The notes below the pieces were generated by a model that had not been told where the DNA came from, did not search any database, and worked only from the letters and a program-made list of their open reading frames with translations. From a virus (lineage: Duplodnaviria; Heunggongvirae; Uroviricota; Caudoviricetes): a stretch of 35,771 nucleotides of DNA. The number at the start of each line of letters is the position of its first letter. Position 1 is the stretch's first letter. Positions 1 through 27,467 of this stretch are shown here, in pieces. The DNA lies in IMG/VR virus record IMGVR_UViG_2897328257_000002. The stretch is one strand, 5' to 3'. Both the position numbers and the translations under genes were made by a program.

Positions 1-1044
1 TTAGCTGTTTGCTTCAAGGCTCGTTGCTTTAGTGGAAAGTGTGGCTAATGGATTGAAACGCAGTGCTGTTTCAAGGTGATCAGGGGCAAGATGTGCATAG
101 CGCATAGTCATTTTTATATCGTGGTGGCCCAGGATTTTTTGCAAAGCAAGAATGTTCCCGCCGGACATCATAAAATGTGCTGCGAACGTATGGCGTAGAA
201 CGTGGGTAAGTTGCCCGCGTGGTAGTACGATCGAGGTTCTATCCATCACGGCTAAAAACTGGAAGTAGCAGTCAGTAAATAATTTGAAGCCGTCTAGGGC
301 AACAATTTCCTCATACAGCTCTTTGCTGATCGGAATGCTGCGGTTTTTTTTGCCCTTAGTTCTGACAAATGTGATTCGGTATTTCGTGACCTGAGAACGT
401 GTCAGGTTCACAGCTTCGCGCCAACGTGCTCCGGTGCTCAAGCAGATTTTGACGACAAGAGCGAGCAGGGGGCTTTGGCGTTGACAGTCGAACAGAAGCT
501 CTGTGATTTGTTCATGTGTCAGCCAGGCCATTTCTTTTTCGGCAATGGTGAATTTACGCATGTTCTCCAGTGGATTTGGTGCTGTCCATTCACCGAGGCG
601 GGCTAACTCGCTAAAGACCCCACTCAGATAGCTTTGCTCCAGATTGATAGTTACCGGGCTGGCTCCTTTCTTCCATTTTTCGCTGAAGTAGATTTCACCC
701 GTCAGGCGCTTATCGCGATAGTGCGCGAACATTTTGGATGTTAGATCGGTGGCGAGGGGATTTCCGAGAGCATCGACCATCAGTATCAACTTGTCGTAAA
801 CATGCTCGCCAGCGGTCAGGGATTTGCCGTGCAGTTTGAACCAGAGTTCAACGATATCCTGTAGAGTTCGACGGTCTACCGATTCACCAAGCCAAGGCTT
901 AGCTTCTGCCTCCTCCATCGTGTGACGCTCAAAAGCTAATGCTTCGCCTTTGGTAGCGAACTGTTTACGCACGCGACGCCCGCTGCGTCCGGCGGGGTAA
1001 CATTCGCAAAGCCATTTCCCTGTGGTTAGTTTTCGTACTGCCAT
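1..1044 (-). CDS. int: Tyrosine integrase (P2/186-type phage integrase)
   Basis: Minus-strand ORF ending at TAA (1..3). First ATG is at 1042..1044 (product MAVRKLTTGKW...), so the 6-frame ORF 1..1200 is a 5' over-extension. C-terminal region LRHTFAAHFMMSGGNILALQKILGHHDIKMTMRYAHL fits the tyrosine recombinase catalytic core. Position at the prophage end next to the repressor gene. Confidence 0.9.
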   Translation of the reverse strand: MAVRKLTTGKWLCECYPAGRSGRRVRKQFATKGEALAFERHTMEEAEAKPWLGESVDRRTLQDIVELWFKLHGKSLTAGEHVYDKLILMVDALGNPLATDLTSKMFAHYRDKRLTGEIYFSEKWKKGASPVTINLEQSYLSGVFSELARLGEWTAPNPLENMRKFTIAEKEMAWLTHEQITELLFDCQRQSPLLALVVKICLSTGARWREAVNLTRSQVTKYRITFVRTKGKKNRSIPISKELYEEIVALDGFKLFTDCYFQFLAVMDRTSIVLPRGQLTHVLRHTFAAHFMMSGGNILALQKILGHHDIKMTMRYAHLAPDHLETALRFNPLATLSTKATSLEANS

Positions 1045-1232
1045 AAAAAATGCCCTCCAGTAGAGAGCATTTTCACTGTATGTATAACCAGTGTCAATGT
1101 ATGAAATCCTACGACCATACATCTCACTGAAGCCATAATTAAGTTGGCTATTCTTTTTGCTATGTGAGCATGTAATTTTTGCGGTTAACCTGCGGCTCAT
1201 TTTTATTTTAGGCGCAGATATAAAAGCAAAAG

Positions 1233-1440: not shown

Positions 1441-2010
1441 CTATTTAACATACTTGACTGTTAAACTTATAATTTTACCAATTATTTCAATGTCTTCTAT
1501 CTTGCATTCGAAGGCTCTGTTTCCACCCTCGACGAAGATTCTTCCACCGGGTAAACGAGTAATGTCACGGATCGTTATTTCGCCATCAATACTTATTACC
1601 CATTTACCATCACGTATATCATCAAATTCCTTATCACAAATAAATTCAGAATTATTATCTGTGATTGCAAAAAGATTCTTGAATGCCGACGGTAGAAATT
1701 CCCTATCGAAAATATAAAAACCGTCTTCACACAAGGCCCCATCAGATAATACATATTTAGCAACTTCCATAGTATTTGTATTTGCTGATGCTTGCTTTGA
1801 ACCATGCCCTGTTGTTAGCCAATTAAGCGAGGTGCCCGTTTCAAGGGCGCACTGGATTACCCAATCTGCTGGAAAAATATCACGCATATAGCGCGTTGCC
1901 ATGGTGCTCTTAGAAACACCTAAATGATCACAGAGAGCCTGACGGGTACCGAACCCATATGCTTCAACTAAACGTTCTATGGCTTTCTTACCGCCGCTAT
2001 TGAAATCCAC
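1441..2010 (-). CDS. cI: CI-type immunity repressor (186-like, HTH N-terminal domain plus C-terminal domain)
   Basis: ORF 1441..2097 has no in-frame ATG near its 5' end. HTH-like segment [23 protein letters not shown]. Probable GTG start at 2008..2010 behind GGAGGA (2013..2018); the start could lie as far upstream as 2097. TAG stop at 1441..1443. Divergent from the apl-like gene. Confidence 0.7.
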
Positions 2011-2155
2011 AAGTCCTCCAAAGAAATCCAAAATTCGTTGACAGATTCCAAAAGCGATCTTAAAGTTGAACCAGAAGTGTTCTTTTGGAGCCTTCACTAC
2101 TAATCACGACAAACAACGGCTCGCCACAAGCCATATCTAGAAGGAATGTTGCCTT
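2011..2155. promoter_or_regulatory. Lysis/lysogeny switch region between divergent cI and apl genes (promoters and operators expected, not resolved)
   Basis: Intergenic segment between the oppositely oriented repressor and Apl/Cox-like genes. Individual promoter or operator sites were not mapped. Confidence 0.4.
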
Positions 2156-4224: not shown

Positions 4225-5078
4225 GCACCATCCTGAAATGGGCGGGAAATAAAACCGCCATTATGTCCGAACTGAAAAAACACCTTCCTGCTGGCCCGCG
4301 ACTGGTTGAACCTTTCGCGGGTTCCTGTGCTGTGATGATGGAGACGGATTACCCCAGCTATCTGGTTGCGGATATTAATCCTGATTTAATCAACCTCTAT
4401 AAAAAGGTTGCCGCTGATTGTGAATCGTTTATATCTCGCGCCAGAGTTTTATTTGAGATCGCAAACAGGGAGGTGGCTTATTACAACATAAGGCAGGAGT
4501 TTAATTACTCCACTGAAATTACTGATTTCATGAAAGCGGTATATTTCCTGTATCTCAATCGTCACGGTTACCGTGGTTTATGTCGCTATAACAAGAGCGG
4601 GCATTTCAACATTCCCTACGGTAATTATAAAAATCCGTATTTCCCTGAAAAAGAAATTCGCGCATTTGCAGAAAAGGCCCAGCGAGCAACGTTTATCTGC
4701 GCCAGCTTTGATGAAACGCAGGCGATGTTGAAGGCGGGGGATGTGGTGTATTGCGATCCGCCGTATGACGGTACGTTTTCCGGCTATCACACTGACGGCT
4801 TCACTGAAGATGACCAGTATCACCTGGCATCTGTTCTTGAACATCGGTCATCAGAAGGACATCCGGTCATTGTTTCTAACAGTGACACATCCCTGATCCG
4901 TTCGCTGTATCGCAATTTTACTCACCACTACATCAAGGCAAAACGCAGCATCGGTGTGGCAGCTGGCGAGGGTAAATCAGCAACAGAAATCATTGCTGTT
5001 TCCGGGCCGCGCTGCTGGGTGGGATTTGATTATTCGCGTGGCGTGGATAGTTCTGCCGTGTACGGAGTACGTGCATGA
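4221..5078 (+). CDS. DNA adenine (N6) methyltransferase, Dam/D12 class
   Basis: ATG at 4221 behind GGAGG (4211..4215). N-terminus [35 protein letters not shown] (AdoMet-binding FxGxG-like motif) and catalytic DPPY (CDPPYDG). Stop overlaps the gene A start. Confidence 0.85.
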
Positions 5079-7489
5079 GTCATGCCGATATGAACAACTG
5101 CTGCGGCTTTAACGAAGCTGCCGCATCGTTCTCATGGAACAGCCCGAAAAAGGCCATTAACCCTTATCTGGACCCGGTGGAAGTTGCGCCGGTTTCTACG
5201 CTTTCAAACCTGATCACTCTGTACGCTGCCGATAACGAGCAGGAACAGCTGCGCCGTGAGGCGCTGAGTGATCAGGTCTGGGAGCGTTATTTCTTTAATG
5301 AATCCCGTGATCCTGTCCAGCGCGAAATGGAACAGGATAAGCTCATTAGTCGGGCAAAGCTGGCGCATGAGCAGCAGCGTTTTAATCCGGATATGGTCAT
5401 TCTGGCGGACGTCAACGCCCAGCCTTCCCATATCAGCAAGCCGCTGATGCAACGTATTGAATACTTCAGCAGCCTTGGCAGGCCAAAGGCTTATTCCCGC
5501 TATTTACGTGAGACGATTAAGCCATGTCTGGAACGACTGGAGCATGTACGCGACAGTCAGCTATCTGCATCTTTTCGCTTTATGGCAAGCCATGAAGGGC
5601 TGGACGGCCTGCTGATCCTGCCTGAAATGAGTCAGGATCAGGTGAAACGCCTGTCCACCCTGGTAGCTGCGCATATGAGTATGTGCCTTGATGCCGCTTG
5701 TGGCGATTTGTATGCCACCGATGACGTTAAGCCAGAAGAAATCCGCAATACATGGGAAAGGGTGGCAGCGGAAACCCTGCGTCTGGATGTAATCCCGCCT
5801 GCGTTTGAGCAACTCCGTCGGAAAAGAAACCGCCGTAAACCCGTGCCCTATGAACTCATTCCGGGTTCGCTGGCGCGTATGTTGTGCGCCGACTGGTGGT
5901 ACCGGAAATTATGGAAAATGCGTTGCGAATGGCGGGAAGAGCAGTTGCGTGCTGTCTGCCTTGTCAGCAAAAAAGCATCTCCCTATGTCAGCTATGAAGC
6001 CGTGTTGCATAAACGTGAGCAGCGCCGTAAGTCGCTGGAGTTTTTCCGTTCTCATGAACTGGTGAACGAAGACGGCGACACGCTGGACATGGAGGATGTG
6101 GTAAACGCCAGCAGCAGCAACCCTGCGCATCGCCGCAATGAGATGATGGCCTGTGTTAAAGGTCTGGAGCTTATCGCGGAAATGCGCGGTGACTGCGCCG
6201 TTTTCTACACCATCACCTGTCCGTCACGTTTCCATTCCACGCTAAATAACGGCAGGCCCAACCCGACCTGGACAAATGCGACGGTAAGACAAAGCAGCGA
6301 TTATCTGGTCGGTATGTTTGCTGCATTTCGTAAGGCGATGCACAAAGCCGGGTTGCGCTGGTATGGCGTGCGGGTGGCTGAGCCGCATCACGACGGCACA
6401 GTTCACTGGCACCTGTTGTGTTTCATGCGCAAAAAAGACCGCCGCGCCATTACTGCATTGTTGCGTAAGTTTGCTATCCGTGAAGACCGCGAGGAGCTGG
6501 GCAATAACACGGGGCCGCGCTTTAAGTCTGAGCTGATTAACCCGCGCAAAGGAACGCCGACAAGCTACATAGCGAAATACATCAGTAAGAACATTGACGG
6601 GCGTGGTCTGGCTGGCGAGATCAGCAAGGAAACGGGTAAATCTCTGCGTGATAACGCTGAATACGTGAACGCCTGGGCGTCTTTGCATCGTGTTCAGCAA
6701 TTCCGCTTCTTTGGCATTCCGGGGCGTCAGGCTTACCGTGAACTGCGATTGCTGGCTGGTCAGGCGGCAAGGCAACAGGGGGACAAAAAAGCAGGTGCGC
6801 CGGTACTGGATAACCCGCGCCTTGATGCCATCTTGGCTGCTGCTGATGCTGGTTGTTTTGCCACCTACATCATGAAGCAGGGCGGCGTACTGGTTCCCCG
6901 TAAATATCACCTCATCAGAACCGCTTATGAAATCAACGAAGAGCCGACCGCCTATGGCGATCACGGCATTCGTATTTATGGCATCTGGTCACCCATTGCA
7001 GAGGGCAAGATCTGCACTCATGCAGTGAAGTGGAAAATGGTTCGTAAAGCCGTTGACGTTCAGGAGGCGGCAGCCGACCAGGGCGCTTGCGCCCCTTGGA
7101 CTCGTGGCAATAACTGTCCCCTTGCTGAAAATTTGAACCAACAAGGGAAAGACAAATCAGCTGATGGGGATACCAGAACGGACATTACCCACATGGATGA
7201 CAAGGAGTTGCACGATTACCTGCACAGTATGAACAAAAAAGAGCGCCGGGAACTGGCTGCAAGGTTACGCCTGGTGAAACCGAAACGGCGTAGAGACTAC
7301 AAACAGCGAATTACAGACCATCAACGACAGCAGCTCGTCTATGAACTGAAGTCCAGAGGATTTGATGGCAGCGAGAAAGAGGTCGATTTACTCCTTCGCG
7401 GCGGCAGTATTCCGTCAGGAGCAGGCCTGCGTGTCTTCTATCGGAACCAGCGTTTGCAGGAAGATGATAAGTGGCGGAACCTGTATTAA
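5075..7489 (+). CDS. A: Replication initiation endonuclease (P2 gpA / 186 A family, rolling-circle HUH protein)
   Basis: 804 aa; HUH-like motif [10 protein letters not shown] and tyrosine-containing YIAKYISK segment; position and size match gene A of P2-like phages. Confidence 0.9.
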
Positions 7490-7642: not shown

Positions 7643-7831
7643 ATGCAGGACTATTTTTTGGAGTCTTTGAAGCTCCAGCGCATTGATTTTTTTCTTAAGC
7701 TTGTAGCGGCTAGTGAGTGTAGTGATGAAGAGAAGGGGCTGGCCCTGCAGTGGGTTTCTGAATTGACTGATGAACTCATGGCAAAAATCAGAAGCCACGA
7801 ATACAACCGCTCAATGGATGTCATCAGCTGA
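7643..7831 (+). CDS. Small hypothetical protein (62 aa) downstream of the LexA box; possible SOS-induced antirepressor-type factor
   Basis: ATG at 7643 with AGGAGG (7633..7638). First ORF after the SOS box. The antirepressor (Tum-like) function is inferred from position only. Confidence 0.45.
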   Translation: MQDYFLESLKLQRIDFFLKLVAASECSDEEKGLALQWVSELTDELMAKIRSHEYNRSMDVIS

Positions 7832-7841
7832 GGTGACTTTT

Positions 7842-8075
7842 ATGCGCATTGAAATAATGATCGATAAAGAGCAGAAGATTAGCCAGTCTACCCTTGACGC
7901 TCTGGAGTCCGAGCTTTACCGCAACCTGCAACCCATCTATCCCAAGACCGCTATCCGCATCCGTAAAGGGTCGGCAAACGGCGTTGAGCTGAGTGGCTTA
8001 AAGCTTGATGAAGACAAAAAGCGGGTGATGGAAATTATGAAACAGGTTTGGGAAGACGACAGCTGGCTGCACTAA
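7842..8075 (+). CDS. dinI: DinI-family protein (DinI/MsgA-like)
   Basis: 77 aa, MRIEIMIDKEQKISQSTLDALESELYRNL...RVMEIMKQVWEDDSWLH. Aligns along its length with E. coli DinI (MRIEVTIAKT...ALAGELSRR...KQRISEILQETWESADDWF). GAGGTG RBS before the ATG at 7842. Confidence 0.8.
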   Translation: MRIEIMIDKEQKISQSTLDALESELYRNLQPIYPKTAIRIRKGSANGVELSGLKLDEDKKRVMEIMKQVWEDDSWLH

Positions 8076-8457: not shown

Positions 8458-9069
8458 ATGGATTTAGTCTTTAAAGTTCTGGCTTCGTTGGGTGGGGTGT
8501 CTTTTGTTGCATCTGGCATATTTGTTTGGATCGGGAAAGTTTATTTAGAAAGATATAAGTCGCGGCTAAACAAAGATATTGCTGAATTTCAATCACAACT
8601 GAGTGCAACTAATGAAAGAATAAAGGCTAAGTTAGACAATTCTGTTTATGTAACGAAAGCGTATTTTGATAAGGAGTTATCAGCATATAGTCTCATTTGG
8701 AATTCGATGTTTGAAACCAGAGAAAGCGTGCTTAAGCTGAGGCCTGCGCTGGATCATGTTGACCCCAACGAACCATTTGAAGAGAGAAAATTTAGAAGGT
8801 TGAAAGTTTTTTTTGATGCATTTAACACTTTTGTTACAAGTGTTGAATCTAACAAACCGTTCATCTCACCAGAGGTTTATATAATCTTGGACCGTTTCCG
8901 GAAGGAATGCCTTTCAGAGTCAATATCGTTTAAGCATAGCGATCCAGAATTTGACGGGCAAAATTATTGGAAAGAGGCGGAGTTGAACCGTACAACCATC
9001 ACCAAGCTTTTTGATGAGACGTGTGATGCAATTCGAGACAGGATGCACACATTAACTGTGGTTACGTAG
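8458..9069 (+). CDS. Membrane-anchored hypothetical protein (203 aa; one N-terminal TM helix, then a charged, partly coiled-coil domain)
   Basis: ATG at 8458. N-terminus LVFKVLASLGGVSFVASGIFVWIG is hydrophobic; no recognised motif. AT-rich cargo region; followed by a terminator. Confidence 0.6.
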   Translation: MDLVFKVLASLGGVSFVASGIFVWIGKVYLERYKSRLNKDIAEFQSQLSATNERIKAKLDNSVYVTKAYFDKELSAYSLIWNSMFETRESVLKLRPALDHVDPNEPFEERKFRRLKVFFDAFNTFVTSVESNKPFISPEVYIILDRFRKECLSESISFKHSDPEFDGQNYWKEAELNRTTITKLFDETCDAIRDRMHTLTVVT

Positions 9070-9160
9070 GTTTCCAAAAAGTCTCGATGCCCGCTTTGGA
9101 GATTGTGCATGTCTATGCCGCATGAATCCGCATGATCGTTTGAGGATCGTTTTAGCTGAG

Positions 9161-9188
9161 GCCCGCCAGGAGTGGCGGGCTTTTGCTT
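9161..9188 (+). terminator. Rho-independent terminator (GCCCGCC-AGGAGT-GGCGGGC followed by TTTTGCTT)
   Basis: Perfect 7-bp GC stem with 6-nt loop and 3' T-tract, about 90 bp downstream of the 8458..9069 gene. Confidence 0.6.
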
Positions 9189-9229
9189 ATGTCATGCAGG
9201 CGCATGAAAACCGCTACATAAAGCGGGCA

Positions 9230-9248
9230 GGCGTGGCGGGGATACGAT
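9230..9248. other. Probable cos site (cohesive-end sequence GGCGTGGCGGGGATACGAT)
   Basis: Matches the P2/186 cohesive-end 19-mers as recalled (GGCGAGGCGGGGAAAGCAC / GGCGTGGCGGGGAAAGCAT) in the first 13 nt, and is followed by TGCGCGCT as at the recalled P2 left end. Sits in a GC-normal intergenic stretch between A-side cargo and the Q/P packaging genes. Confidence 0.5.
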
Positions 9249-9316
9249 TGCGCGCTAGGTATAAGTGTGTAAAATAATTCCAAAATAAATCATCCTAATG
9301 AAGTGAGAGGGTAATA

Positions 9317-10966
9317 ATGTTAGTCAAGAAAAATAAAAATTATAGTTTATATTTTTTAATTACAAATAATCAACAGATATCTGATTCTGGTAATTATATA
9401 AAAATAGTCCCATCAAGAAGCGATTGGAATGATTTTGGATATTTGAGTAGAGTCGAAATATCTATTTTTAATAAAAAAGAGTGTAAGGATATAATTTCAC
9501 TGAATGGTTATATTGGTTTTTTGAATTCAGAGGAGGAACGAAATGGAAAAGCAGAACTGATAAGGCGAGTGAAGAAAAAGGAAGAATCTAATTTAAAGGA
9601 TGAGGGGTTTAATGATTATTTTGTCATGCTTCAGGATATGAATAATTATCGAAGACTAGTAAGATTTTTTGGGGTGAATGAATCCAAATATATATTAAAT
9701 TTCATTAATGATGTTGTTTCTAAGAAAAGTGACGCTAGTGCAGAGAATTTGAGGAAAAAAGCAATCTCTTCTGATATCTTTAATAAATCTTTCATTAGAG
9801 AGTCTGAGTCGTATTTTACTTTCAAAAATGCAGGAACAGTTCTTTCCGGTATTCAATATGAGGAGTTGGGTAATTTATCACAGCACATCAAGATTAGCTA
9901 TTCGAATAAAGTTAATGAAGAAGATGTATCTTATGTTTTTAATTTTGATCACGAGCATGATTTACCAAAAAGAATTTCCATAATTATAGGCGAGAATGGT
10001 GTAGGAAAAAGCCAAACGCTTAGAGAAATCGCATTGGCTGCGATTAAAGGAAAGGATAATTTGGTGGCTGTAGTTGATTCTAACGGTGTAAGCATTGAAG
10101 AACGAATTCAAATTAGTAGGCTCATTGCTTTTTCTCCAACAAATGAAAGTAAGTGTTCATTTCCAACCGATAAAAGAATAAAATCATTGATATGGTACAA
10201 AAGATTGACTTTAAATCGTGAATCAAAATCCAAATTAAACTTGAATGATTTAATAGTGCAACTAGCGAGGAGTAACGACGCTATCGGCTATAATCAAAGG
10301 TGGAATATATTTGTTGATGCACTGAGTGTTCTAAATAGTAACAACGATTTAGTAATCAAATGTAGCGGTGAAAATTCACCATTTGTTAAATTAAATGAGC
10401 TTAATTCTCGAGGCGAAGAATCCAGACTATCATTATATTCTGAAATTATTCTCTCTGGCGAGCCTTTGAGGCTTGTTGAAAATAAATGTTACCCTTTGAG
10501 TAGTGGGGAAATATCGTTTATTAAGTTTTGTGTACAAGTCTGTTTGTATATTGAGAATGGGACTCTTCTATTAATAGATGAGCCAGAAACACATCTCCAT
10601 CCTTCATTTATTAATAAATTTATGGCATTGCTTGATAATTTATTAGAAAAGACAGGCTCTTCAGCTATCATAGCAACGCATTCGGTTTATCTTGTTCGGG
10701 AGGTTTTTAAGGAGCAAGTGACAATACTCAGAAGACGAGATGATGGGGTAATTGTTAGCGAAAAACCGAGATTGAGTACTTTTGGGGCGAATATAGGAAA
10801 TATCTCATATTTTGTTTTCGGTGAGAGTGAACCAACTCAAATTTTAAATAAAGTAAAAAATAATATAATTGCAAAGAATATGTCTTGGGATGATGTTGAA
10901 TCTAAATATAGCGAGGACTTATCACTTAATGTATTAACTGCGTTGAGAAATGAAATAGGCAATTGA
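9317..10966 (+). CDS. ABC-type (AAA_15/AAA_21-like) ATPase with ~220-aa N-terminal extension; PtuA-like candidate defence ATPase
   Basis: 549 aa. Walker A GENGVGKS (~residue 225), signature-like LSSGE, Walker B/D-loop LLLIDEPETHLHP, H-loop IIATHS. N-terminal ~220 aa has no recognisable motif. Very AT-rich; stop is 1 nt before the next start. Confidence 0.75.
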   Translation: MLVKKNKNYSLYFLITNNQQISDSGNYIKIVPSRSDWNDFGYLSRVEISIFNKKECKDIISLNGYIGFLNSEEERNGKAELIRRVKKKEESNLKDEGFNDYFVMLQDMNNYRRLVRFFGVNESKYILNFINDVVSKKSDASAENLRKKAISSDIFNKSFIRESESYFTFKNAGTVLSGIQYEELGNLSQHIKISYSNKVNEEDVSYVFNFDHEHDLPKRISIIIGENGVGKSQTLREIALAAIKGKDNLVAVVDSNGVSIEERIQISRLIAFSPTNESKCSFPTDKRIKSLIWYKRLTLNRESKSKLNLNDLIVQLARSNDAIGYNQRWNIFVDALSVLNSNNDLVIKCSGENSPFVKLNELNSRGEESRLSLYSEIILSGEPLRLVENKCYPLSSGEISFIKFCVQVCLYIENGTLLLIDEPETHLHPSFINKFMALLDNLLEKTGSSAIIATHSVYLVREVFKEQVTILRRRDDGVIVSEKPRLSTFGANIGNISYFVFGESEPTQILNKVKNNIIAKNMSWDDVESKYSEDLSLNVLTALRNEIGN

Positions 10967-10967
10967 A

Positions 10968-11831
10968 ATGAATAAATTAAAAAGACCTGTTTTTAAAGAT
11001 TATTCTGCATTTAAAAAACTATCTGCAAATAAGAGATTAAAACATCATTCTGTTCTGAATGGACAGGATACATTTATACTTAATGCATATAGATCGTACA
11101 TAAAGAATAAAGGATATCTTAATGTCAATTCTTGTGGCGTATTGAGTAACAATATTGCTGAAGCTTTGAAATATTATTATAACAATCCCGCAAAGTGTTT
11201 ATCTATAATTGATGATATAAGAGCAGCTAATTCTAATTCTCTATGTCCAATGTGTGGTTCAATGCATAGCGGGACTTTGGATCATGTTTTACCCAAGGAA
11301 AACTATCCAGAATTTTCTTTATTCACTAAGAATTTGGTTCCTGCTTGCAAATGTAATACTTTCAAAAGTACTACTATAGCTAATTCTGCAGGCCATCGGA
11401 TGCTGCATCCATATTTTGATAATATATTAAAAAAAAGATTAATATGTGCTAATTTTTCTAAATTAGGGCGAACACCTACAATTGATGTAAAAATCATAAT
11501 TGACCCAATGTCACCAGAATATAACAATGTTAAGTATCATCTTGATAATGTTGTTATCAAGAATAATATTAAGGGGTATTTGTCTGAACAATGGGAGTCG
11601 TTTTACTTATATCCTGAGCTTGTTATTAGAGGACTGAATAAGAGTCTTTCTACTTATAGCGATGTATATGAGTTGTTGACTCGCGAGTTGTTGCTGTTGG
11701 ATGAAAAACATAAAGGTAAAAATAATTGGAATTCGGTTTTTGTAGCTGGGTTAATTCGACCTGATGTGATTAGGTGGATACTCTGTGAATTACATTTAGG
11801 TAACAGAAGTCCAGACGGTCGTCTCATATGA
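10968..11831 (+). CDS. HNH endonuclease-domain protein; PtuB-like candidate defence nuclease
   Basis: 287 aa with CPMCGSMHSGTLDHVLPKENYP...NLVPACKCN...H...LHPYF, an HNH core with cysteine zinc-binding pairs. Translationally coupled to the upstream ATPase. Confidence 0.7.
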   Translation: MNKLKRPVFKDYSAFKKLSANKRLKHHSVLNGQDTFILNAYRSYIKNKGYLNVNSCGVLSNNIAEALKYYYNNPAKCLSIIDDIRAANSNSLCPMCGSMHSGTLDHVLPKENYPEFSLFTKNLVPACKCNTFKSTTIANSAGHRMLHPYFDNILKKRLICANFSKLGRTPTIDVKIIIDPMSPEYNNVKYHLDNVVIKNNIKGYLSEQWESFYLYPELVIRGLNKSLSTYSDVYELLTRELLLLDEKHKGKNNWNSVFVAGLIRPDVIRWILCELHLGNRSPDGRLI

Positions 11832-11841
11832 TTTTTTGCAT

Positions 11842-11867
11842 CTTCAGCGTGTATCTGCACGCTGAAG
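11842..11867. other. Perfect 10-bp inverted repeat (CTTCAGCGTG - TATCTG - CACGCTGAAG) between the HNH gene and the Q stop
   Basis: Seen directly; T-run lies on the 5' side on the plus strand, so not a canonical terminator for either flanking gene. Possible cassette boundary or protein-binding site. Confidence 0.4.
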
Positions 11868-11938
11868 AAATTCATAAAAACTGCTGGCTATTAATAACTT
11901 TTTTTAGTTGTGTTAAAGAACCTCATTTAGTTATTACG

Positions 11939-12970
11939 TTAAGTAGCTAGTTTATAACTATCAAATTTAACAATGTTCTCACTTACCAATTTATTTATTT
12001 CCATCATTCTTTTTTGTAACGGTATTAACTCGTTACGTACAAACACCAGGCTCGCCTTCTCCACATCCCCAAACCCCCCGACATTATTAGGCATAATCCC
12101 CATCATTTGCGGTGGCACACGATGCGCCGCCATCATGTCATCCCGGCTCACGTTCTTGATGTTCAGAAACTCATCCTTCGCCGCGACTTCTGACAACGGG
12201 ATGATCTGAAGCCCGTCCTTTTTGCCGTTAGGCGAGTACATAAACAGATTGCGGAAGTTACCTGGTCCTTTGGCGCTTTTCATCGCATTGCGGAGGTTGT
12301 TCACATCCTCCTGGTTTTGCGCGGCATCGGTCATGTACATGATGAAGCCTGCATGACTGCCGTTAATGTAATACTTTCGGCGGAACAGCGTGGCGGACTC
12401 GTTGAGCAGGGCTGACGGAATGGCAGAAAGGTAACCTGGCAGGCCGTAGATCTCCTGGTTGATGTCCGGTTCCATCAGATGAAAAATGCTGCCTTTCGTG
12501 AACTGATACGGCTGGGTTGTCATACCGTATTGCACAAACCAGTAGGTATCCAGGTCTAACCCGCGTCGGGTGTATTTTGCCAGAGCAGGCTCAAGAGCGA
12601 TGACCTCTCCGAACCGGTTTGTGCGTTTCTCCAGGTAAGCGTTACCAAATACCAGATAATCCTGCACAAAACGTGAAAAAGCCTGCTGGCTGAGCAGCGG
12701 GTGAGGGATGTAGGTACTGGTCAGAATGTTGCACTTTACTGCAATCGGGGAGCTATGATGTACGGCAGCGCGGAAGGTTCGCGCCAGTCCGTCAAAACTC
12801 ACTGGCGGCTCATACCAGCGATCTGTCTGTACGCATTCCACATAGTCCAGTAGTTCACGGCGGTCCAGAACCGGAACGGGATCGCCGAAGCTGAATGCTT
12901 CGGCTGAAGCCTGGTTTTTATGCTGGATCTGTTTCGTCGACGCAGCGCGGTTTTTCTTACTCTTTCCCAT
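11939..12970 (-). CDS. Q: Portal protein (P2 gpQ family)
   Basis: 343 aa from ATG 12968..12970; start overlaps the P stop (TGATG); size and order (Q downstream of P, both leftward) as in P2. Confidence 0.9.
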   Translation of the reverse strand: MGKSKKNRAASTKQIQHKNQASAEAFSFGDPVPVLDRRELLDYVECVQTDRWYEPPVSFDGLARTFRAAVHHSSPIAVKCNILTSTYIPHPLLSQQAFSRFVQDYLVFGNAYLEKRTNRFGEVIALEPALAKYTRRGLDLDTYWFVQYGMTTQPYQFTKGSIFHLMEPDINQEIYGLPGYLSAIPSALLNESATLFRRKYYINGSHAGFIMYMTDAAQNQEDVNNLRNAMKSAKGPGNFRNLFMYSPNGKKDGLQIIPLSEVAAKDEFLNIKNVSRDDMMAAHRVPPQMMGIMPNNVGGFGDVEKASLVFVRNELIPLQKRMMEINKLVSENIVKFDSYKLAT

Positions 12971-14736
12971 CAAAAAATCTCCACAATATTGCTGGTATTG
13001 GCGGATTCGCCCTGCAGCGGTTCGTTAAACAATGCGTGCATCGTTGCCCAGGCCAGATCGGCGTGGCTGGCTTCTTCGCTGCGGCTGGCTTCATAGGTTG
13101 GGCGGTTGCCACTGGCGGTGGTGGCGCGACGGATTGCCATGAATGACTGCGCAATGTCGGTGTGCCCGGCGTCAAACTCCAGACGGCGGTGGCTGATAAT
13201 GTCGTAGGCCTTGAGTACCAGGGCGTTTTTAACGTTGGGGTTGTAGACAAACTCCCGGACGGCAGGAAAGAACGCTTTCACGTTCTCATAAACCCCGTGA
13301 CCAACGCCGGTCGAGTCGATACCGATGTATGTCACGTTGTACTGTTCAGTCAGTTTTTTGATGGCATCAGCCTGGGCGCGAAAGTCCATCCCGCGCCACT
13401 GGTGACGCTCAAGAATGCGGAACTTGCCGCCCGGCACGGCTGGCGGAGCCACCACCACGCATCCGGCACTGTCGCCGTTCTGCGTACCTTTTGCCGGGTC
13501 ATAACCGATCCACACTTCGCGCCAGCCAAACGGGCGCAGGGCCAGTGCATGAAAATCGGTCCAGACTTCCCAGCTGTCCACCATACACGCCTGCAGTTCG
13601 CTGAGCGGGAACACGGACGCGAGATCGTCCACAAACTCGCACATCAGCAGGTTCTGGTATTCGTCCGGGCTGTACTCCATGCGCAACTGGTCAAGGTCGA
13701 ACAGGTTACAGCCGCCGCGCACTGCATCTTCCACGGTGACTATCTGGCGGTACTGCCCGTCTGCGCACAGCAGGCCGGGGGCCAGATTGCTGTGGGACAG
13801 GTCGATGTCCACCTTATCGGCTTTATTGCGCCCACGGTTGAACAGCGCACCGGACCAGAACGGATAAGCACTGTGTGTCAGGCTGGATGGCGTGGAAAAA
13901 TAGGTTTGTCGCCATTTTTTGTGGATAGCCATACCGGAAGCCACTTTGCGCAGCTCCTGGAATTTCGGTATCCAGAAATATTCATCCAGATACAGGTTGC
14001 CGTGGTAACTCTGGGCCGTGCGGGCATTGGTGCCGAGGAAGTAAAGCGTGGCTCCGTTAGGAAGCACCATCGGATCGCCTTTCAGCTCCACCTCGACTTC
14101 TTTGGCGAAGTCTATGATGTACTGCTTAAAGACGTGAGCCTGTGCCTTGCTGGCGGAAAGAAAAATCTGGTTACGTCCGGTAAGCAGAGCGTCAATCAGG
14201 GCTTCACGGGCAAAGTAAAAGGTCGCGCCGATCTGGCGTGACTTCAGCAGGTTGCGGATGCGGTTGGTTTTTCCGGCTTCCCACCAGTGGCGCTGGTAGT
14301 TAAACATGGAGGAATGGAAGATTTCTTCCAGCTTCTCAATCTGCTCATCGGTGAAAACATTCTTTTCCGGCTGACGGCGCGGGCCTTTGTTGCGGTTGGC
14401 GACGTTAGGGTTTAAGTCGGCTTCGTTGCCGCCATTGTTAAACTTGCCGATCCGCGCGTGGCGCTCCGACTGGCGCGCCAGCAGGTCAATTTCTTTGAAA
14501 TCTTTCCCTTCTTTGTGCTCCTTCATAATGAGCTGGCAGTAGCGTGCGGCGGTGGTGAGCTGCATCTGATCCAGCGGCCCATAGTCACCCCACTTGTCGC
14601 GTTTTTTCCAGCTGTGAACGGTTGCAACTTTCTCGCCCAGCATTTCAGCAATGCGGGCGACGCGGTATCCCTGAAAGTACAGCAGCATGGCCTGCCGACG
14701 GGGATAGAGATCTGCGGGTGTCAGTGTGGTGTTCAT
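12970..14736 (-). CDS. P: Terminase large (ATPase) subunit (P2 gpP family)
   Basis: 588 aa, close to P2 gpP size; divergent from the capsid operon, upstream of Q. Confidence 0.9.
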   Translation of the reverse strand: MNTTLTPADLYPRRQAMLLYFQGYRVARIAEMLGEKVATVHSWKKRDKWGDYGPLDQMQLTTAARYCQLIMKEHKEGKDFKEIDLLARQSERHARIGKFNNGGNEADLNPNVANRNKGPRRQPEKNVFTDEQIEKLEEIFHSSMFNYQRHWWEAGKTNRIRNLLKSRQIGATFYFAREALIDALLTGRNQIFLSASKAQAHVFKQYIIDFAKEVEVELKGDPMVLPNGATLYFLGTNARTAQSYHGNLYLDEYFWIPKFQELRKVASGMAIHKKWRQTYFSTPSSLTHSAYPFWSGALFNRGRNKADKVDIDLSHSNLAPGLLCADGQYRQIVTVEDAVRGGCNLFDLDQLRMEYSPDEYQNLLMCEFVDDLASVFPLSELQACMVDSWEVWTDFHALALRPFGWREVWIGYDPAKGTQNGDSAGCVVVAPPAVPGGKFRILERHQWRGMDFRAQADAIKKLTEQYNVTYIGIDSTGVGHGVYENVKAFFPAVREFVYNPNVKNALVLKAYDIISHRRLEFDAGHTDIAQSFMAIRRATTASGNRPTYEASRSEEASHADLAWATMHALFNEPLQGESANTSNIVEIF

Positions 14737-20697: not shown

Positions 20698-21228
20698 TTA
20701 CGCACTTAATAAACTTAAATAACTTTTTATGCTTTGGCAAAAAGGGAAAAGGTCTATTTTAATTTTCCAGTTTTTTTTGTTTTGAACCCCAGAAGCAATA
20801 ATAGAACCATCCCAATATTTTATTCCATTTTTGCCGGTCTTTTTTGTTAACTCAAAACTTAATGCGTGAATAATTTTATTGCAGCATTCGCGTATAGAAC
20901 CTTTAACATGACCATCTATAACAAAAAGTATATTTTCATGTTCTTCAAATGCTTCTTTCTCAGGTGAGTAATCTGGGTTCCACTCATGTTCACTAGTGTC
21001 TTGGAGAATTCGTAGTTTTGTACAAAGGCTAATAAGATTGTTGCTAATGGTATATTCCAACCATCCGTTGTACGATAACTCCTCCATTTCAAATTCAGTT
21101 ACTATAGAATCATCATATACTTTCTGTGTGGAATATATACGCTGTAAATAAAATTCAGATGAACAGCATAATTGCTCAATTATTCTTGCGTGTTCTTCTA
21201 TAGCGTAATAATCAATTGGATGGCTCAT
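20698..21228 (-). CDS. Hypothetical protein (176 aa) in AT-rich moron between S and V (P2 orf30 position)
   Basis: ATG at 21226..21228 (product MSHPIDYYAIEEHARIIEQL...); opposite strand to the flanking late genes; no recognised motif. Confidence 0.6.
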   Translation of the reverse strand: MSHPIDYYAIEEHARIIEQLCCSSEFYLQRIYSTQKVYDDSIVTEFEMEELSYNGWLEYTISNNLISLCTKLRILQDTSEHEWNPDYSPEKEAFEEHENILFVIDGHVKGSIRECCNKIIHALSFELTKKTGKNGIKYWDGSIIASGVQNKKNWKIKIDLFPFCQSIKSYLSLLSA

Positions 21229-21259
21229 TCTTTTACCTTTCTTCGATTGGAATTGTATT

Positions 21260-21277
21260 TGTGTCATTTACCACACA
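21260..21277. promoter_or_regulatory. Late-promoter activator dyad TGT-N12-ACA (TGTGTCATTTACCACACA) upstream of V
   Basis: Exact dyad in the 95-bp intergenic region between the moron start and the V start. Confidence 0.5.
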
Positions 21278-23153: not shown

Positions 23154-23751
23154 TCTGCTGCCACCGGGTTCAACACCACTGGAGCGCCGACTGGCGCAAA
23201 CCTGCAGCGGGATTTCTGATCTGCAGGTGCCGCTTCGTGACTTGTGGAATCCGGCAACCTGTCCGGTCAGTTTCCTGCCTTATCTCGCCTGGGCGTTCTC
23301 TGTAGATCGCTGGGACGAGGGCTGGACAGAAAGCGTCAAGCGCCAGGTGGTGAAGGATGCTTTTTATATTCATCAGCATAAAGGGACCACCAGTGCCGTG
23401 CGGCGGGTGGTGGAGCCGTTCGGCTTTCTGATCCGCATTATTGAGTGGTGGCAGACCGGAGAGGCACCGGGCACGTTTCGCCTGGATATCGGCGTGCAGG
23501 ACCAGGGTATCACTGAAGATACCTATCTGGAACTTGAGCGACTGATAAGCGATGCCAAACCATGTAGCCGCCACATGATCGGCATGTCCATCAATCTGCA
23601 GACCAGCGGCCCGCATTGGGTGGGAGCCGCCAGCTATCTTGGCGAAGAAATCACGATCTATCCGTATATCAACGAAACGATTATTTCCGGTGGCACCGCG
23701 CATGAAGGCGGGGCGGTCCATGTTATTGACACAATGAGAGTGAATCCATGA
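23146..23751 (+). CDS. I: Baseplate/tail protein I (P2 gpI family)
   Basis: 201 aa; overlaps the J stop and the H start. Confidence 0.8.
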   Translation: MNSLLPPGSTPLERRLAQTCSGISDLQVPLRDLWNPATCPVSFLPYLAWAFSVDRWDEGWTESVKRQVVKDAFYIHQHKGTTSAVRRVVEPFGFLIRIIEWWQTGEAPGTFRLDIGVQDQGITEDTYLELERLISDAKPCSRHMIGMSINLQTSGPHWVGAASYLGEEITIYPYINETIISGGTAHEGGAVHVIDTMRVNP

Positions 23752-24804
23752 GCACAAAATTTTATACCCTGCTGACGGATATTGGCGCGGCGAAACTTGC
23801 CAGCGCCGCCGCGCTCGGTGTGCCGCTAAAAATTACCCATATGGCGGTGGGCGATGGCGGCGGAGTATTGCCAACGCCGGACGCAAAGCAGACGGCACTG
23901 GTAAATGAGAAACGCCGGGCTGCGCTGAATATGCTTTATATCGACCCGCAGAACAGCAGCCAGATTATTGCTGAACAGGTGATCCCTGAAAACGAGGGCG
24001 GTTGGTGGATACGTGAAGTGGGCCTGTTTGATGAGTCCGGGGCATTGATTGCCGTGGGCAACTGCCCGGAAAGCTATAAGCCGCAACTGGCTGAAGGCAG
24101 CGGGCGCACCCAGACCGTGCGCATGGTGCTGATTACCAGCAGTACGGACAATATCACCCTGAAAATCGACCCTGCTGTAGTGCTGGCAACCCGCAAGTAT
24201 GTGGATGACAAGGCACTGGAGCTGAAGGTGTACGTGGATGACCTGATGGCAAAACATCTTGCCGCACCGGACCCGCATTCACAGTATGCACCCAAAGAAA
24301 GTCCGACGTTTACCGGAACCCCCAAAGCGCCAACGCCAGCGGCGGGGAATAATACCACGCAGCTTGCGACCACCGCATTTGTTCAGGCGGCACTGACGGC
24401 TCTTATTAATGGTGCGCCAGCCACGCTGGACACGCTGAAAGAAATAGCCGTAGCCATTAACAATGATCCGAAATTCAGTACCACCATTAACAATGCGCTG
24501 GCACTGAAAGCGCCGCTGTCGAGTCCGGCACTCACCGGAACGCCAACAGCTCCCACGGCGGCGCAGTCGGTCAACAATACACAGATTGCCACTACGGCTT
24601 TTGTGAAATCGGCGATTGCAGGAATGGTGGGTTCTGCACCTGCGGCCCTAGATACACTGAACGAACTGGCGGCGGCGCTGGGGAATGATCCGAACTTTGC
24701 CACGACAATGCTTAATGCGCTGGCAGGTAAACAACCGCTGGACAATACGCTGACTAATTTGAGTGGAAAGGATGTAGCTGGTCTTCTCGCATACCTTGGT
24801 TTGG
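23748..24804 (+). CDS. H: Tail fibre protein H, N-terminal (constant) part only; 3' end truncated by the assembly gap
   Basis: N-terminus MSTKFYTLLTDIGAAKLASAA...MAVGDGGG...ESYKPQLAEGSGRTQTVRMVLITS matches the recalled P2 gpH N-terminal region. Reading frame runs into the N-run at 24805. Confidence 0.85.
24312..24755 (+). repeat. Two tandem ~74-aa tail-fibre repeats within H (TGTPxAPT...NNTQxATTAFV...APAxLDTLxExAxAxxNDPxFxTT)
   Basis: Visible in the H translation (residues ~189-262 and ~263-336). Confidence 0.5.
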
Positions 24805-24815
24805 NNNNNNNNNNN
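24805..24815. other. Assembly gap (11 N)
   Basis: Run of N in the sequence; interrupts the tail-fibre region exactly where an invertible segment is expected. Confidence 0.99.
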
Positions 24816-24980
24816 ACGAATAAACTCACCACGTAAATCAGGCAATTTATTTGTCGGATAAGCCTTTGCCAGTTCCGGGTATTCTTCAGCAGAAAAAGCT
24901 GCACCGTTGCATTTCAGCCAGCCTGTCGGCGGAGTGGCTGAAGGCCATGGAACAGGTACACCAACAGGTAATGCCGAACC
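24816..24980 (-). CDS. 5' fragment of an alternative tail-fibre variable (C-terminal) segment in inverted orientation; remainder lost in the gap
   Basis: Minus-strand translation ...SALPVGVPVPWPSATPPTGWLKCNGAAFSAEEYPELAKAYPTNKLPDLRGEFIR carries the PWPS...YP.LA.AYP...PD.RG motif recalled from variable tail-fibre ends of the Mu S / P1 S / P2 H type. Lies just inside the candidate inversion site next to the invertase gene. Confidence 0.5.
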
Positions 24981-25006
24981 TTCTCCCAAACCAACGTTTA
25001 AGAAAA
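24981..25006. promoter_or_regulatory. Candidate Hin/Gin-type inversion crossover site (TTCTCCCAAACCAACGTTTAAGAAAA)
   Basis: 26-bp imperfect palindrome with AAACC-AA-(G)GTTT core resembling recalled hix/gix sites; located between the variable fibre fragment and the invertase gene. Confidence 0.45.
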
Positions 25007-25061
25007 TGCAGCGATTACGGCTAACTGGCATCATCCCCGGTTTTTATTCAGGGGGATGATC

Positions 25062-25628
25062 ATGCTTATTGGCTATGTACGCGTGTCAACAAATGACCAG
25101 AACACCGATTTGCAACGTAATGCACTGAACTGCGCGGGATGTGAGCGGATTTTTGAGGATAAAATCAGTGGCACTAAGTCCGACAGACCAGGGTTGAAAA
25201 AACTGCTCAGGACACTATCGGCAGGAGACACGCTGGTTGTCTGGAAGCTGGACAGGTTGGGGCGCAGTATGCGGCATCTTGTTACGCTGATAGAAGAGTT
25301 GCGTCAGCGAGGCGTGAATTTCCGAAGCCTGACTGACAGTATTGATACCAGCACCCCAATGGGCCGTTTCTTTTTTCATGTCATGGGTGCCCTGGCTGAA
25401 ATGGAACGCGAACTGATAGTTGAACGTACCAGGGCAGGGCTGGCTGCAGCTCGTGCCAAAGGCAGAGTAGGTGGACGCCGTCCTAAGTTGACCACCGAAC
25501 AGTGGGCACAGATTGGGCGTTTACTCGAGGCCGGAGAATCAAGACAGCGTATTGCACTGATTTTTGATGTAGGCGTTTCTACCATTTATAGAAAATTTCC
25601 GGCAAATAAGAGCAATGAATCTCCCTGA
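25062..25628 (+). CDS. Serine-recombinase DNA invertase (Gin/Hin/Pin/Cin family)
   Basis: MLIGYVRVSTNDQNTDLQRNAL... with catalytic serine context VRVSTNDQ and C-terminal HTH (VGVSTIYRKF); essentially collinear with recalled Gin. ATG at 25062 behind GGGGG; an alternative ATG at 25056 is in frame. Confidence 0.9.
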   Translation: MLIGYVRVSTNDQNTDLQRNALNCAGCERIFEDKISGTKSDRPGLKKLLRTLSAGDTLVVWKLDRLGRSMRHLVTLIEELRQRGVNFRSLTDSIDTSTPMGRFFFHVMGALAEMERELIVERTRAGLAAARAKGRVGGRRPKLTTEQWAQIGRLLEAGESRQRIALIFDVGVSTIYRKFPANKSNESP

Positions 25629-25675
25629 ATCAGCATTATTTTGATTATCCCTGCAGCAGACAAATACCGTCATTT

Positions 25676-25693
25676 TGTGTGAATAACGGTACA
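25676..25693. promoter_or_regulatory. Late-promoter activator dyad TGT-N12-ACA (TGTGTGAATAACGGTACA) upstream of FI
   Basis: Exact dyad about 85 bp upstream of the FI start. Confidence 0.55.
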
Positions 25694-25769
25694 ACTGCGC
25701 TTAGCTGTTTGTCAGGCACAATCACTTCAACATAGGGCGAAGCCTAATCCAATCAGGAGGTTCGCCACT

Positions 25770-26942: not shown

Positions 26943-26951
26943 GGGGACAAC

Positions 26952-27467
26952 ATGGCTTTACCACGCAAATTAAAACATCTGAACCTGTTTAACGACGGGA
27001 ACAACTGGCAGGGAATCGTTGAGTCGCTGACGCTGCCGAAATTCACCCGCAAATATGAGAAGTATCGCGGCGGCGGTATGCCGGGGGCGGTGGATGTGGA
27101 TCTGGGACTGGATGACAGTGCACTGGATACAGAATTTTCCATTGGTGGTACCGAACTGCTGCTGTTTAAGCAGATGGGCAAATCCACGGTGGATGGCATC
27201 CAGTTGCGCTTTACCGGCTCTATCCAGCGTGACGATACCGGGGAAGTGCAGGCCGTGGAGCTTGTGGTGCGTGGACGTCACAAAGAAGTGGATTCCGGCG
27301 AGTGGAAGACGGGCGAAAGCAACACCACCAAAGTGACCAGTACCAACAGCTACGCGAAGCTGACTATCAATGGTGAGGTGCTCTATGAAGTGGACCTTAT
27401 CAACATGGTGGAAATTGTGGACGGCGTGGACCTGATGGAAGCGCACCGCAACGCCCTCGGCCTCTGA
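26952..27467 (+). CDS. FII: Tail tube protein (P2 gpFII family)
   Basis: 171 aa following the sheath gene. Confidence 0.85.
   Translation: MALPRKLKHLNLFNDGNNWQGIVESLTLPKFTRKYEKYRGGGMPGAVDVDLGLDDSALDTEFSIGGTELLLFKQMGKSTVDGIQLRFTGSIQRDDTGEVQAVELVVRGRHKEVDSGEWKTGESNTTKVTSTNSYAKLTINGEVLYEVDLINMVEIVDGVDLMEAHRNALGL

Follow-up and report, generated by a model that had tools for sequence, protein, structure and literature searches.

What does a coupled pair of ATPase and nuclease genes do between the cos site and the portal gene of a prophage, and to which family does it belong? This question is raised by the virus record IMGVR_UViG_2897328257_000002 (Caudoviricetes), a DNA stretch of 35,771 nt that is called the window here and whose positions are counted from the first letter of the whole stretch. 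Based on gene content and profile matches, the window is a P2/186-like prophage. Its two genes of interest, gene A (9317..10966) and gene B (10968..11831), are predicted to encode an ABC-type ATPase and an HNH nuclease, and a first-pass annotation made from the sequence alone had proposed them as a Septu-like anti-phage system, possibly a divergent or undescribed variant. The homology searches reported here place the pair in the family of Ea59 and Ea31 of phage lambda, which is the same family as the PADLOC candidate system PDC-M01. It is likely that the pair is a horizontally acquired two-gene module of this family, a deep sister of the Septu proteins PtuA and PtuB, and an ATP-controlled nuclease that is used against competing phages.

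Relationship to lambda Ea59/Ea31 and PDC-M01

In lambda (NC_001416), ea59 (AAA family ATPase, 525 aa) overlaps by 4 bp with the gene directly after it, ea31 (HNH endonuclease, 296 aa), and a tblastn search of B against phage genomes returned lambda-type Ea31 as its sole matches. The comparison of family profiles with hhalign aligned the A family to Ea59 with a probability of 99.5% (E 7.8e-23, 472 columns, A 33-549 against Ea59 24-520), including the N-terminal domain, and the B family to Ea31 with a probability of 99.4% (E 2.4e-21, 263 columns). In BLASTP, A is 24% identical to Ea59 end to end (552 columns, E 1e-19), and B is 37% identical to Ea31 over the core (E 3e-15). The same family emerges from the profile databases. 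The best PADLOC model for A is PDC-M01A (2.4e-55, residues 27-541, near full length), with PtuA models in second place, and the best for B is PDC-M01B (1.3e-33, residues 2-264), which accounts for all of the top 25 matches. Among the PHROG families, A matches phrog_8066 (1e-209) and B matches phrog_18937 (1e-206) as well as the 'HNH endonuclease' family phrog_10378 (2.9e-22, B residues 80-262). Since the lambda proteins themselves score 3.9e-201 (Ea59 on PDC-M01A) and 5.8e-113 (Ea31 on PDC-M01B) and the hhalign matches are full length, PDC-M01 can be equated with the Ea59/Ea31 family, and the window pair is, as judged from its sequence, a full-length member of it.

One PADLOC model labelled PtuA1, PDLC00282, also matches A over the full length at 1e-31. 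The same model gives lambda Ea59 (lambda 24509..26973) a value of 5.4e-184, almost equal to that of the best PDC-M01A model, and is in effect an Ea59 model. The only full-length 'PtuA' match of A is due to this label. PDC-M01, an unpublished candidate, has been reported to produce duplicates of Septu calls (PMC11811056), and these double calls are explained by the same model. The exact window pair (WP_000960488 and WP_024199288) is also present in the raw P2-hotspot table of Rousset et al. 2022, where it is unclassified and described as 'AAA_21/AAA_15' and 'hypothetical' (PMC9122126). The proposal of a Septu-like pair therefore holds insofar as there is real, distant core homology to PtuA and PtuB, but the closest characterised relative is lambda Ea59/Ea31. 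Likewise, the pair is not a canonical Septu, as had been suspected, yet it is not undescribed either, given PDC-M01, PHROGs 8066 and 18937 and the table of Rousset et al. PADLOC, suggested as a check, did match a candidate system, which is PDC-M01 rather than curated Septu.

In lambda, ea59 and ea31 are transcribed from pL as delayed-early lytic genes and are not expressed in the lysogen. A lambda-specified endonuclease described in 1982, which we take to be the product of Ea59 and Ea31 together, presumably requires ATP. The report of this single-stranded-DNA-dependent enzyme is cited in PMC5241400. Both genes are non-essential members of the lambda b region that are deleted or replaced in lambda engineering and are dispensable for plaque formation, and ea59 is annotated as 'ATP-dependent endonuclease' (PMC10695390). 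A survey of His-Me finger proteins names Ea31 as 'ATP-dependent nuclease EA31' (PMC5714182).

Features of the two proteins

The features of the locus, all on the plus strand except for the strandless inverted repeat, are as follows.

9305..9311 (+): ribosome-binding site GAGAGGG of gene A, 5 nt 5' of the ATG, read from the sequence
9317..10966 (+): gene A, predicted Ea59-type / PDC-M01A ABC-family ATPase, 549 aa, from the open reading frame (ORF) and profile matches
9317..9871 (+): N-terminal domain of A, up to residue ~185; the secondary structure of the AlphaFold2 (AF2) model begins with five beta strands, which helices follow; no Pfam family
9989..10012 (+): Walker A motif GENGVGKS, residues 225-232; G225, N227, G228, G230 and K231 invariant
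10496..10582 (+): ABC signature LSSGE (394-398) through Walker B LLLIDE (416-422); invariant, aligned to UvrA, PtuA and Ea59
10679..10681 (+): H-loop histidine H455, invariant
10964..10970 (+): coupling junction TGA-A-ATG in the context ...AAT TGA A ATG AAT..., 1 nt between stop and start
10968..11831 (+): gene B, predicted Ea31-type / PDC-M01B HNH (His-Me finger) nuclease, 287 aa, from the ORF and profile matches
11244..11420 (+): predicted HNH core of B, residues 93-151, with C93-x2-C96, D105-H106, N122, C127-x-C129-N130, H147 and D151, from conservation
11421..11828 (+): C-terminal helical domain of B, residues 152-287; predicted local distance difference test (pLDDT) 75-98, conserved W209 and N252-x-W254, aligned to the Ea31 C-terminus
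11841..11868 (no strand): 11-bp perfect inverted repeat TCTTCAGCGTG / CACGCTGAAGA with a 6-nt loop, in the gap where gene B and the portal gene converge, found by eye

The protein of gene A is matched by Pfam AAA_21 (2.4e-16, residues 221-460) and AAA_15 (5.1e-8). Its motifs G225..K231-S232, L394-S-S-G-E398, D421-E422 and H455 are invariant in an alignment of 34 sequences, and the same Walker A, signature, Walker B and H455 positions are at least 90% conserved over 69 members at 22-43% identity. In these 69 members, D39, Y111, D132 and R161 of the N-terminal domain are conserved as well, and this domain, which aligns to Ea59 residues 24-160, is a candidate sensor or partner-binding domain. The first-pass annotation had described about 220 aa of unassigned sequence in front of the ATPase. 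This region indeed has no Pfam family, but it is covered by PADLOC, PHROG and lambda Ea59, and because the ABC fold begins near residue 188 in the AF2 model (mean pLDDT 79), the extra domain comprises ~185 aa rather than 220. In the PDB, searches with the sequence and profile of A matched only the generic C-terminal ABC region. Foldseek with the AF2 model did not discriminate between ABC transporters and PtuA chains, which had similar E-values and TM (template modelling) scores of 0.25-0.33; the OLD nuclease 6p74 was matched too.

For the protein of gene B, the core residues show little or no variation in an alignment of 64 sequences with identities as low as 25%, and their pattern corresponds to that of a zinc-stabilised His-Me finger. 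The C-terminal domain is a candidate for docking to the ATPase. Pfam and NCBIfam contain no HNH model matching B itself, so the HNH call is based on motif conservation and profile-profile comparison. The profile searches that had been recommended for confirming both domains succeeded with AAA_21 and AAA_15 for A, whereas for B a match to PtuB and Ea31 profiles took the place of a Pfam HNH match. Matches of B to S100-A9 in the PDB searches (E ~0.01) were rejected as spurious helical matches, and nothing else useful was returned. The second Cys pair of B (window 11346..11354, residues 127-129) is C-x-C (CKC) throughout the 64-sequence alignment of the window subfamily. It is C-x-x-C in lambda Ea31 (CRDC) and in PtuB, and the zinc knuckle of the window type is thus one residue shorter.

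Judging by these alignments, the catalytic residues of both proteins are intact. All of the ATPase and HNH motifs quoted in the first-pass annotation are present in the translations and invariant or nearly so in the family alignments, and the two coupled genes with stop and start 1 nt apart were found as described.

Distribution and genomic contexts

The window pair was found in only 3 of 5,426 complete E. coli genomes (99.2-99.4% identity), whereas the adjacent 160-bp cos segment occurs in more than 1,000 of them. The lambda-type pair is present in 91 of the same 5,426 genomes. In the carrier NZ_CP148579, the pair is annotated as 'AAA family ATPase' and 'HNH endonuclease' and occupies the same slot with different genes upstream of cos. 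In strain UMNF18, which shares the upstream ORF and cos, an unrelated gene of 416 aa fills the slot up to the portal gene. The A-B pair is foreign, swappable cargo, and it is missing from more than 99% of related P2-like prophages, which places it outside the phage core programme.

An exhaustive profile search for the B family yielded 189 cluster representatives (50% identity) at E <=1e-30 and approximately 2,460 at <=1e-10, and a scan of one genome per species yielded 434 relatives of A. A B-family gene lies directly 3' of A on the same strand in 77 of the 79 loci kept; the other two loci are at contig ends, so that pairing was found in 77 of 77 testable loci. Junctions resembling TGA-A-ATG, with a 4-bp overlap or a few nucleotides between the genes, are present in lambda and in the 77 other loci. 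These loci stem from at least nine phyla and include Alpha-, Beta- and Gammaproteobacteria, Myxococcota, Bdellovibrionota, Verrucomicrobiota, Bacteroidota, Actinomycetota, Acidobacteriota, Elusimicrobiota and a candidate phyla radiation (CPR) genome. In all 77, the module consists strictly of two genes, with no methyltransferase, small antitoxin-like gene or third conserved gene. In Pseudoxanthomonas suwonensis (CP011144, 9794..10528), the gene 3' of the A homologue is called with just 244 aa and a start 165 nt behind A, which is probably a mis-called start and not a truncation.

Most homologues are located outside phages, on elements resembling integrative and conjugative elements (ICE-like), genomic islands, plasmids and chromosomal islands beside restriction-modification (RM) systems. 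Examples are an ICE-like element that also encodes type IV secretion, an integrase and a RES toxin, and an integrase-flanked Salmonella island with HipA, an ScoMcrA-HNH protein, a TraI relaxase and ArdC. In Variovorax, a type III RM-like pair adjoins the module, and homologues were found on fifteen plasmids, eight of them conjugative. The 115 flanking ORFs that were sampled include type III RM, McrBC, DpdF, Olokun, MADS, TniQ and integrase genes mixed with ordinary genes.

The cos-proximal slot and the rest of the prophage

The surroundings of the pair comprise the following features.

1..1200 (-): integrase
1441..2097 (-): CI repressor
5075..7489: replication endonuclease
7770..8075: DinI-like gene
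9161..9184 (+): hairpin GCCCGCC-AGGAGT-GGCGGGC with TTTT directly behind it, on the 5' side of cos, found by eye and missed by the terminator scan
9230..9257 (no strand): P2-type cos site, consisting of a 19-nt cohesive-end homologue (9230-9248) and a conserved flank, from alignment to P2 cosL
11939..12973 (-): portal gene
12970..14736 (-): terminase

Capsid, tail and lysis genes are located past the terminase. Even with 3 mismatches allowed, a search of the window for the P2 cos pattern gave no match, and cos was located by alignment instead: of the 19 bases at 9230-9248, 14 agree with the annotated cosL of P2 (NC_001895), and the 8 bases after them, TGCGCGCT, are identical. The interval from cos to the portal gene is approximately 170 nt in P2 and 2.69 kb with genes A and B in the window. 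The pair is on the portal side of cos, which would be the left end of the packaged genome. On the P2 map, tin and old are on the opposite side of cos from the portal gene. The placement between cos and the portal gene was thus correct in the first-pass annotation, and the gpA-to-gpQ region it named is a hotspot, but the equation with the tin/old site fits less well since the pair is on the other side. The AT-rich island it described in an otherwise GC-normal prophage is also evident, with a GC content of 0.30-0.34 over 9501-12000 compared to 0.52-0.61 in the phage structural genes. Its view of an ATPase and HNH operon as foreign cargo of a defence hotspot agrees with the literature, in which the cos-proximal region between gpA and gpQ of P2-like phages is recognised as such (Rousset et al., PMC9122126; also PMC13586616).

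The hairpin at 9161..9184 lies within the segment 9100-9258 that is common to more than 1,000 E. coli genomes and probably ends the preceding early-region transcript. Downstream of gene B, the inverted repeat at 11841..11868 is likely a bidirectional terminator, which the terminator scan missed because no T run follows the repeat. The 160-bp segment 9100..9258, which contains the hairpin and cos, shares 80-99% identity with these E. coli genomes and is also present in P2-like phages of Klebsiella, Salmonella, Yersinia and Erwinia. In some records, small 'hypothetical protein' calls are placed on it (e.g. 9122..9277 here), which are probably not genes.

On the gpA side of cos, the ORF 8458..9069 (+, 203 aa, GC content 0.38) has a hydrophobic helix at the N-terminus and a coiled coil. 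The ORF is matched by phrog_26391 (function unknown) and by no PADLOC or Pfam family, and may represent another cargo of the hotspot, made up of a single gene. Its counterpart in E. coli UMNF18 is labelled 'valyl-tRNA synthetase', which looks like a misannotation from a weak coiled-coil match to Val_tRNA-synt_C (E 0.0089). Another ORF, 20698..21267 (-, 189 aa), coincides with a GC dip of 0.36 and runs antisense to the late tail and baseplate genes around it. This ORF is matched by phrog_18838 (function unknown) and by no Pfam or PADLOC family, and resembles a moron-like insertion. The region 23748..25628 is probably an invertible host-range segment: its tail-fibre gene (Phage_tail_fib N-terminal domain, 362 aa) precedes antisense ORFs and a serine invertase of the Hin/Gin/Cin type (25056..25628; Resolvase 2.3e-53 and HTH_7). 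At the right end of the window, host genes are found, namely a ybjL-like transporter gene (33152..34837, -) and ybjM (35107..35484), and the prophage boundary is near 32.6-33.1 kb at a GC dip.

Proposed function and alternative explanations

In the likely case of a defence module, gene A would provide an ABC-type ATPase with an extra N-terminal domain of ~185 aa that is lacking in canonical PtuA, and gene B, coupled to A in translation, a zinc-stabilised HNH nuclease that has N- and C-terminal domains of its own. Both proteins most likely form one complex, in which ATP binding and hydrolysis by A together with a cue would set the timing of nucleic acid cutting by B. The cue, read by the N-terminal domain of A or by the complex, could be a phage protein or aberrant or single-stranded DNA. 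From its cos-proximal slot in a P2-like prophage, the module would most likely stop unrelated superinfecting phages. A possible outcome is that phage DNA is cut; alternatively, host nucleic acid may be cut in the manner of abortive infection, comparable to Septu and tRNA-Tyr. A complex with an ATPase-gated nuclease is suggested by the homology and by the precedent of Septu (PMC13096335, PMC12819146). The proposal as a whole is supported by the position of the pair as cargo, its strict linkage as two genes, active sites that are intact and its occurrence on mobile elements. Complex formation, ATP control, the trigger, the substrate, the defence phenotype and expression in the lysogen are inferred.

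Several points weigh against a defence function. The lambda copy belongs to the early lytic genes transcribed from pL, which fits a defence role of a prophage less neatly, and lambda forms plaques without ea59 and ea31 (PMC10695390). The literature searched contains no published defence phenotype for any member of the Ea59/Ea31 family and no link between Septu and ea59, and it mentions PDC-M01 only as an unpublished candidate. A validated Septu system of P. rettgeri (PMC12935923) was considered as a possible tested relative, as Providencia homologues exist, but was rejected since its PtuA is canonical. In addition, the flanks of distant homologues are mixed and include ordinary metabolic genes, and the survey of these flanks is a descriptive listing. 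A promoter scan revealed no convincing sigma-70 promoter 5' of gene A, and promoter-like sites were less frequent than in shuffled sequence; the sole candidate 5' of gene A, seen by eye, is a weak TTGCGC-16-TAAAAT at 9248-9275. For the nuclease, the Pfam HNH model PF01844 touches only 4 of 36 B relatives, and weakly, and the HNH core was modelled by AF2 at low confidence (pLDDT <50 for residues 86-139), with confident prediction only outside the core.

Among the alternatives, the Ea59/Ea31 family could be a distinct anti-phage system and not a Septu subtype, in which the N-terminal domain of A senses infection and the nuclease is activated by ATP, i.e. with a polarity opposite to that of Septu. 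This is a tentative explanation and an unlikely one. Alternatively, the pair could be an ordinary Septu with a PtuA hexamer holding two PtuB, an ATP-inhibited nuclease, and tRNA-Tyr cleavage or DNA nicking as the outcome. The two-gene architecture, the core homology to PtuA and PtuB from the literature, the prominence of PtuA chains in the fold search, the full-length match to the PtuA1 model and the duplicate calls are in line with it. However, this PtuA1 model is an Ea59 model, none of the top 25 PADLOC matches of B is a PtuB, the NCBIfam scores for PtuA and the retron-type HNH are below their cut-offs, and PDB sequences of PtuA match weakly and those of PtuB not at all. With a different Walker A position and Walker A to Walker B spacing, ~85 extra N-terminal residues in B and a C-terminal domain of B that cannot be aligned to PtuB, membership in ordinary Septu is improbable. 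A role in the phage's own lytic cycle, such as degradation of host or competitor DNA, processing of recombination or replication intermediates, or countering host defence, would agree with the full-length homology to the delayed-early lambda genes, with the co-direction of gene A with the upstream early and replication genes and the lack of a clear promoter of its own, and with the lambda endonuclease of 1982. It is quite improbable, as the hairpin with its T run and cos lie between the pair and the early genes, more than 99% of related P2-like prophages lack the pair, most homologues are not in phages, and lambda grows normally without ea59 and ea31.

The module could also act as an addiction or toxin-antitoxin-like system, or as a restriction-like ATP-dependent nuclease directed at foreign or modified DNA in general, and thereby mainly stabilise or protect its carrier element instead of sensing phages. 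Carriage on many kinds of mobile elements, homologues adjoining RM genes, the description of Pfam AAA_21 as related to AbiEii-type toxins and a partial match of A to TIGR04435 ('restriction system-associated AAA family ATPase', 1.1e-20) point in this direction. The TIGR04435 match, however, is limited to A residues 392-506 and scores 73.9 bits where the cut-off is 300, and the absence of a methyltransferase, a small antitoxin-like gene and a third conserved gene from all 77 loci speaks against it. This explanation, which overlaps with the preferred one and does not exclude it, is considered very improbable. Finally, B could be a packaging accessory with the ATPase as a helper. HNH proteins encoded beside terminase genes reportedly aid cos cleavage in some siphophages, as in HK97-like cos phages, and the pair is located directly between cos and the portal and terminase genes. 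But the cos segment is widespread and the pair is rare, P2 lacks the pair altogether, the slot is filled by an unrelated gene in UMNF18, the composition of the pair is foreign, and its homologues are mostly found outside phages and always together with the ATPase. The distribution brings a packaging role close to refuted. A homing endonuclease was considered as well and rejected. An acquired Ea59/Ea31 module that is directed against competing phages therefore remains the preferred explanation.

Significance

The connection made here is that, by homology, the hotspot cargo pair, PDC-M01 and ea59/ea31 of the lambda b region form one family. The window locus itself is a rare cargo variant, which PADLOC would flag as a PDC-M01 candidate. 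If the family does defend against phages, a role would be found for a 50-year-old puzzle of the lambda b region, whose genes, known since the 1970s, are routinely deleted from lambda vectors, and ATPase-nuclease immunity of the Septu type would gain a second architecture with a sensor-like domain. One PADLOC 'PtuA' model would then need to be reassigned. If the family should prove to be a distinct system, wild-type lambda would carry a nuclease-based exclusion or defence function in addition to its known exclusion systems RexAB and SieB.

Comparison with known systems

The window pair resembles lambda Ea59/Ea31 in gene order, protein sizes and coupling (4-bp overlap in lambda, 1-nt gap in the window). 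The homology extends from end to end and takes in the C-terminal domain of B as well as the N-terminal domain of A, where WNDFG corresponds to WNDYS of Ea59. Both pairs fall into the same PADLOC families and are dispensable cargo of temperate coliphages. They differ in that the identity is only 24% for A and 37% over the core for B, in the second Cys pair of the nuclease (C-x-C in the window, C-x-x-C in Ea31), and in their location, since the lambda pair adjoins attP and int, whereas the window pair lies between cos and the portal gene behind a hairpin. With PDC-M01, the pair shares the two-gene architecture and the best models for both proteins; PDC-M01 differs in being a candidate system to which no mechanism or phenotype is attached.

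In Septu, an ABC-type ATPase gene is likewise followed by an HNH nuclease gene in one operon, and the catalytic cores are homologous. For two literature Septu pairs taken from the tables of Rousset et al. (PMC9122126), the relationship could be quantified. The B profile matched the PtuB of a P4-hotspot pair with a probability of 96.8% (E 2.9e-10, 108 columns), and the A profile matched the PtuA of the same pair with a probability of 96.2% (E 2.1e-9), but only in the half from the signature to the H-loop. Literature PtuBs also cross-match the PDC-M01B models at ~1e-8. The spacing of 16 between H106 and N122 of B equals that of literature PtuB and of H75 and N91 in Septu Ec-B88, where both residues are essential and the Walker motifs and HNH residues are both required for defence (PMC13096335). 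In Septu, PtuA holds PtuB in an oligomer under ATP control, with the nuclease inhibited by ATP (PMC12819146), and by analogy, an ATPase oligomer that controls the nuclease would be the expected logic of the window pair. Septu, including the PtuAB effectors of the type I-A retrons Ec78/Eco7 and Ec83, is also found in P4 and P2 hotspots (PMC9122126).

Nevertheless, the pair does not belong to the curated PtuA and PtuB models. NCBIfam PtuA (NF041760) gives A 40.9 bits against a cut-off of 500, the retron-type HNH model TIGR02646 gives B 13.4 bits against a cut-off of 52 (E 0.059), the PDB PtuA sequences match A weakly (8ee4: 1.7e-3, residues 415-548), and sequence and profile searches with PDB PtuB sequences gave no match to B. 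The Walker A lysine is residue 231 in A but K43 in Ec-B88 and at ~15-35 in three other PtuAs, and the spacing from Walker A to Walker B is 190 residues compared to 273 in Ec-B88. A thus has intact ABC-type motifs and B the conserved HNH His and Asn, but the typical PtuA layout of an N-terminal Walker A, a long helical insert and a PtuB-binding C-terminal extension is not found in A, which instead has its extra N-terminal domain and, from Walker A to the signature, a shorter insert. B differs in its ~85 additional N-terminal residues and in a C-terminal domain without detectable similarity to PtuB. The Ea59/Ea31 enzyme, presumably ATP-requiring, would also contrast with the ATP-inhibited nuclease of Septu. 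Because of the differences in Walker A position, Walker spacing and the extra domain, the pair is set apart from curated Septu and is, on sequence grounds, a distant sister of Septu rather than a member.

The OLD family with P2 Old, AriA of PARIS and GajA of Gabija have a related ABC-type ATPase, which is reflected in the fold match to 6p74 and a PADLOC match to AriA at 1.5e-13. Membership in these systems was rejected, as Pfam and PADLOC show no Toprim match in A or B and the partner is an HNH protein. The window nuclease differs from theirs in being of the HNH and not the Toprim type and in being a separate polypeptide. P2 carries old in the gpA-gpQ hotspot, and the window pair would be its functional analogue.

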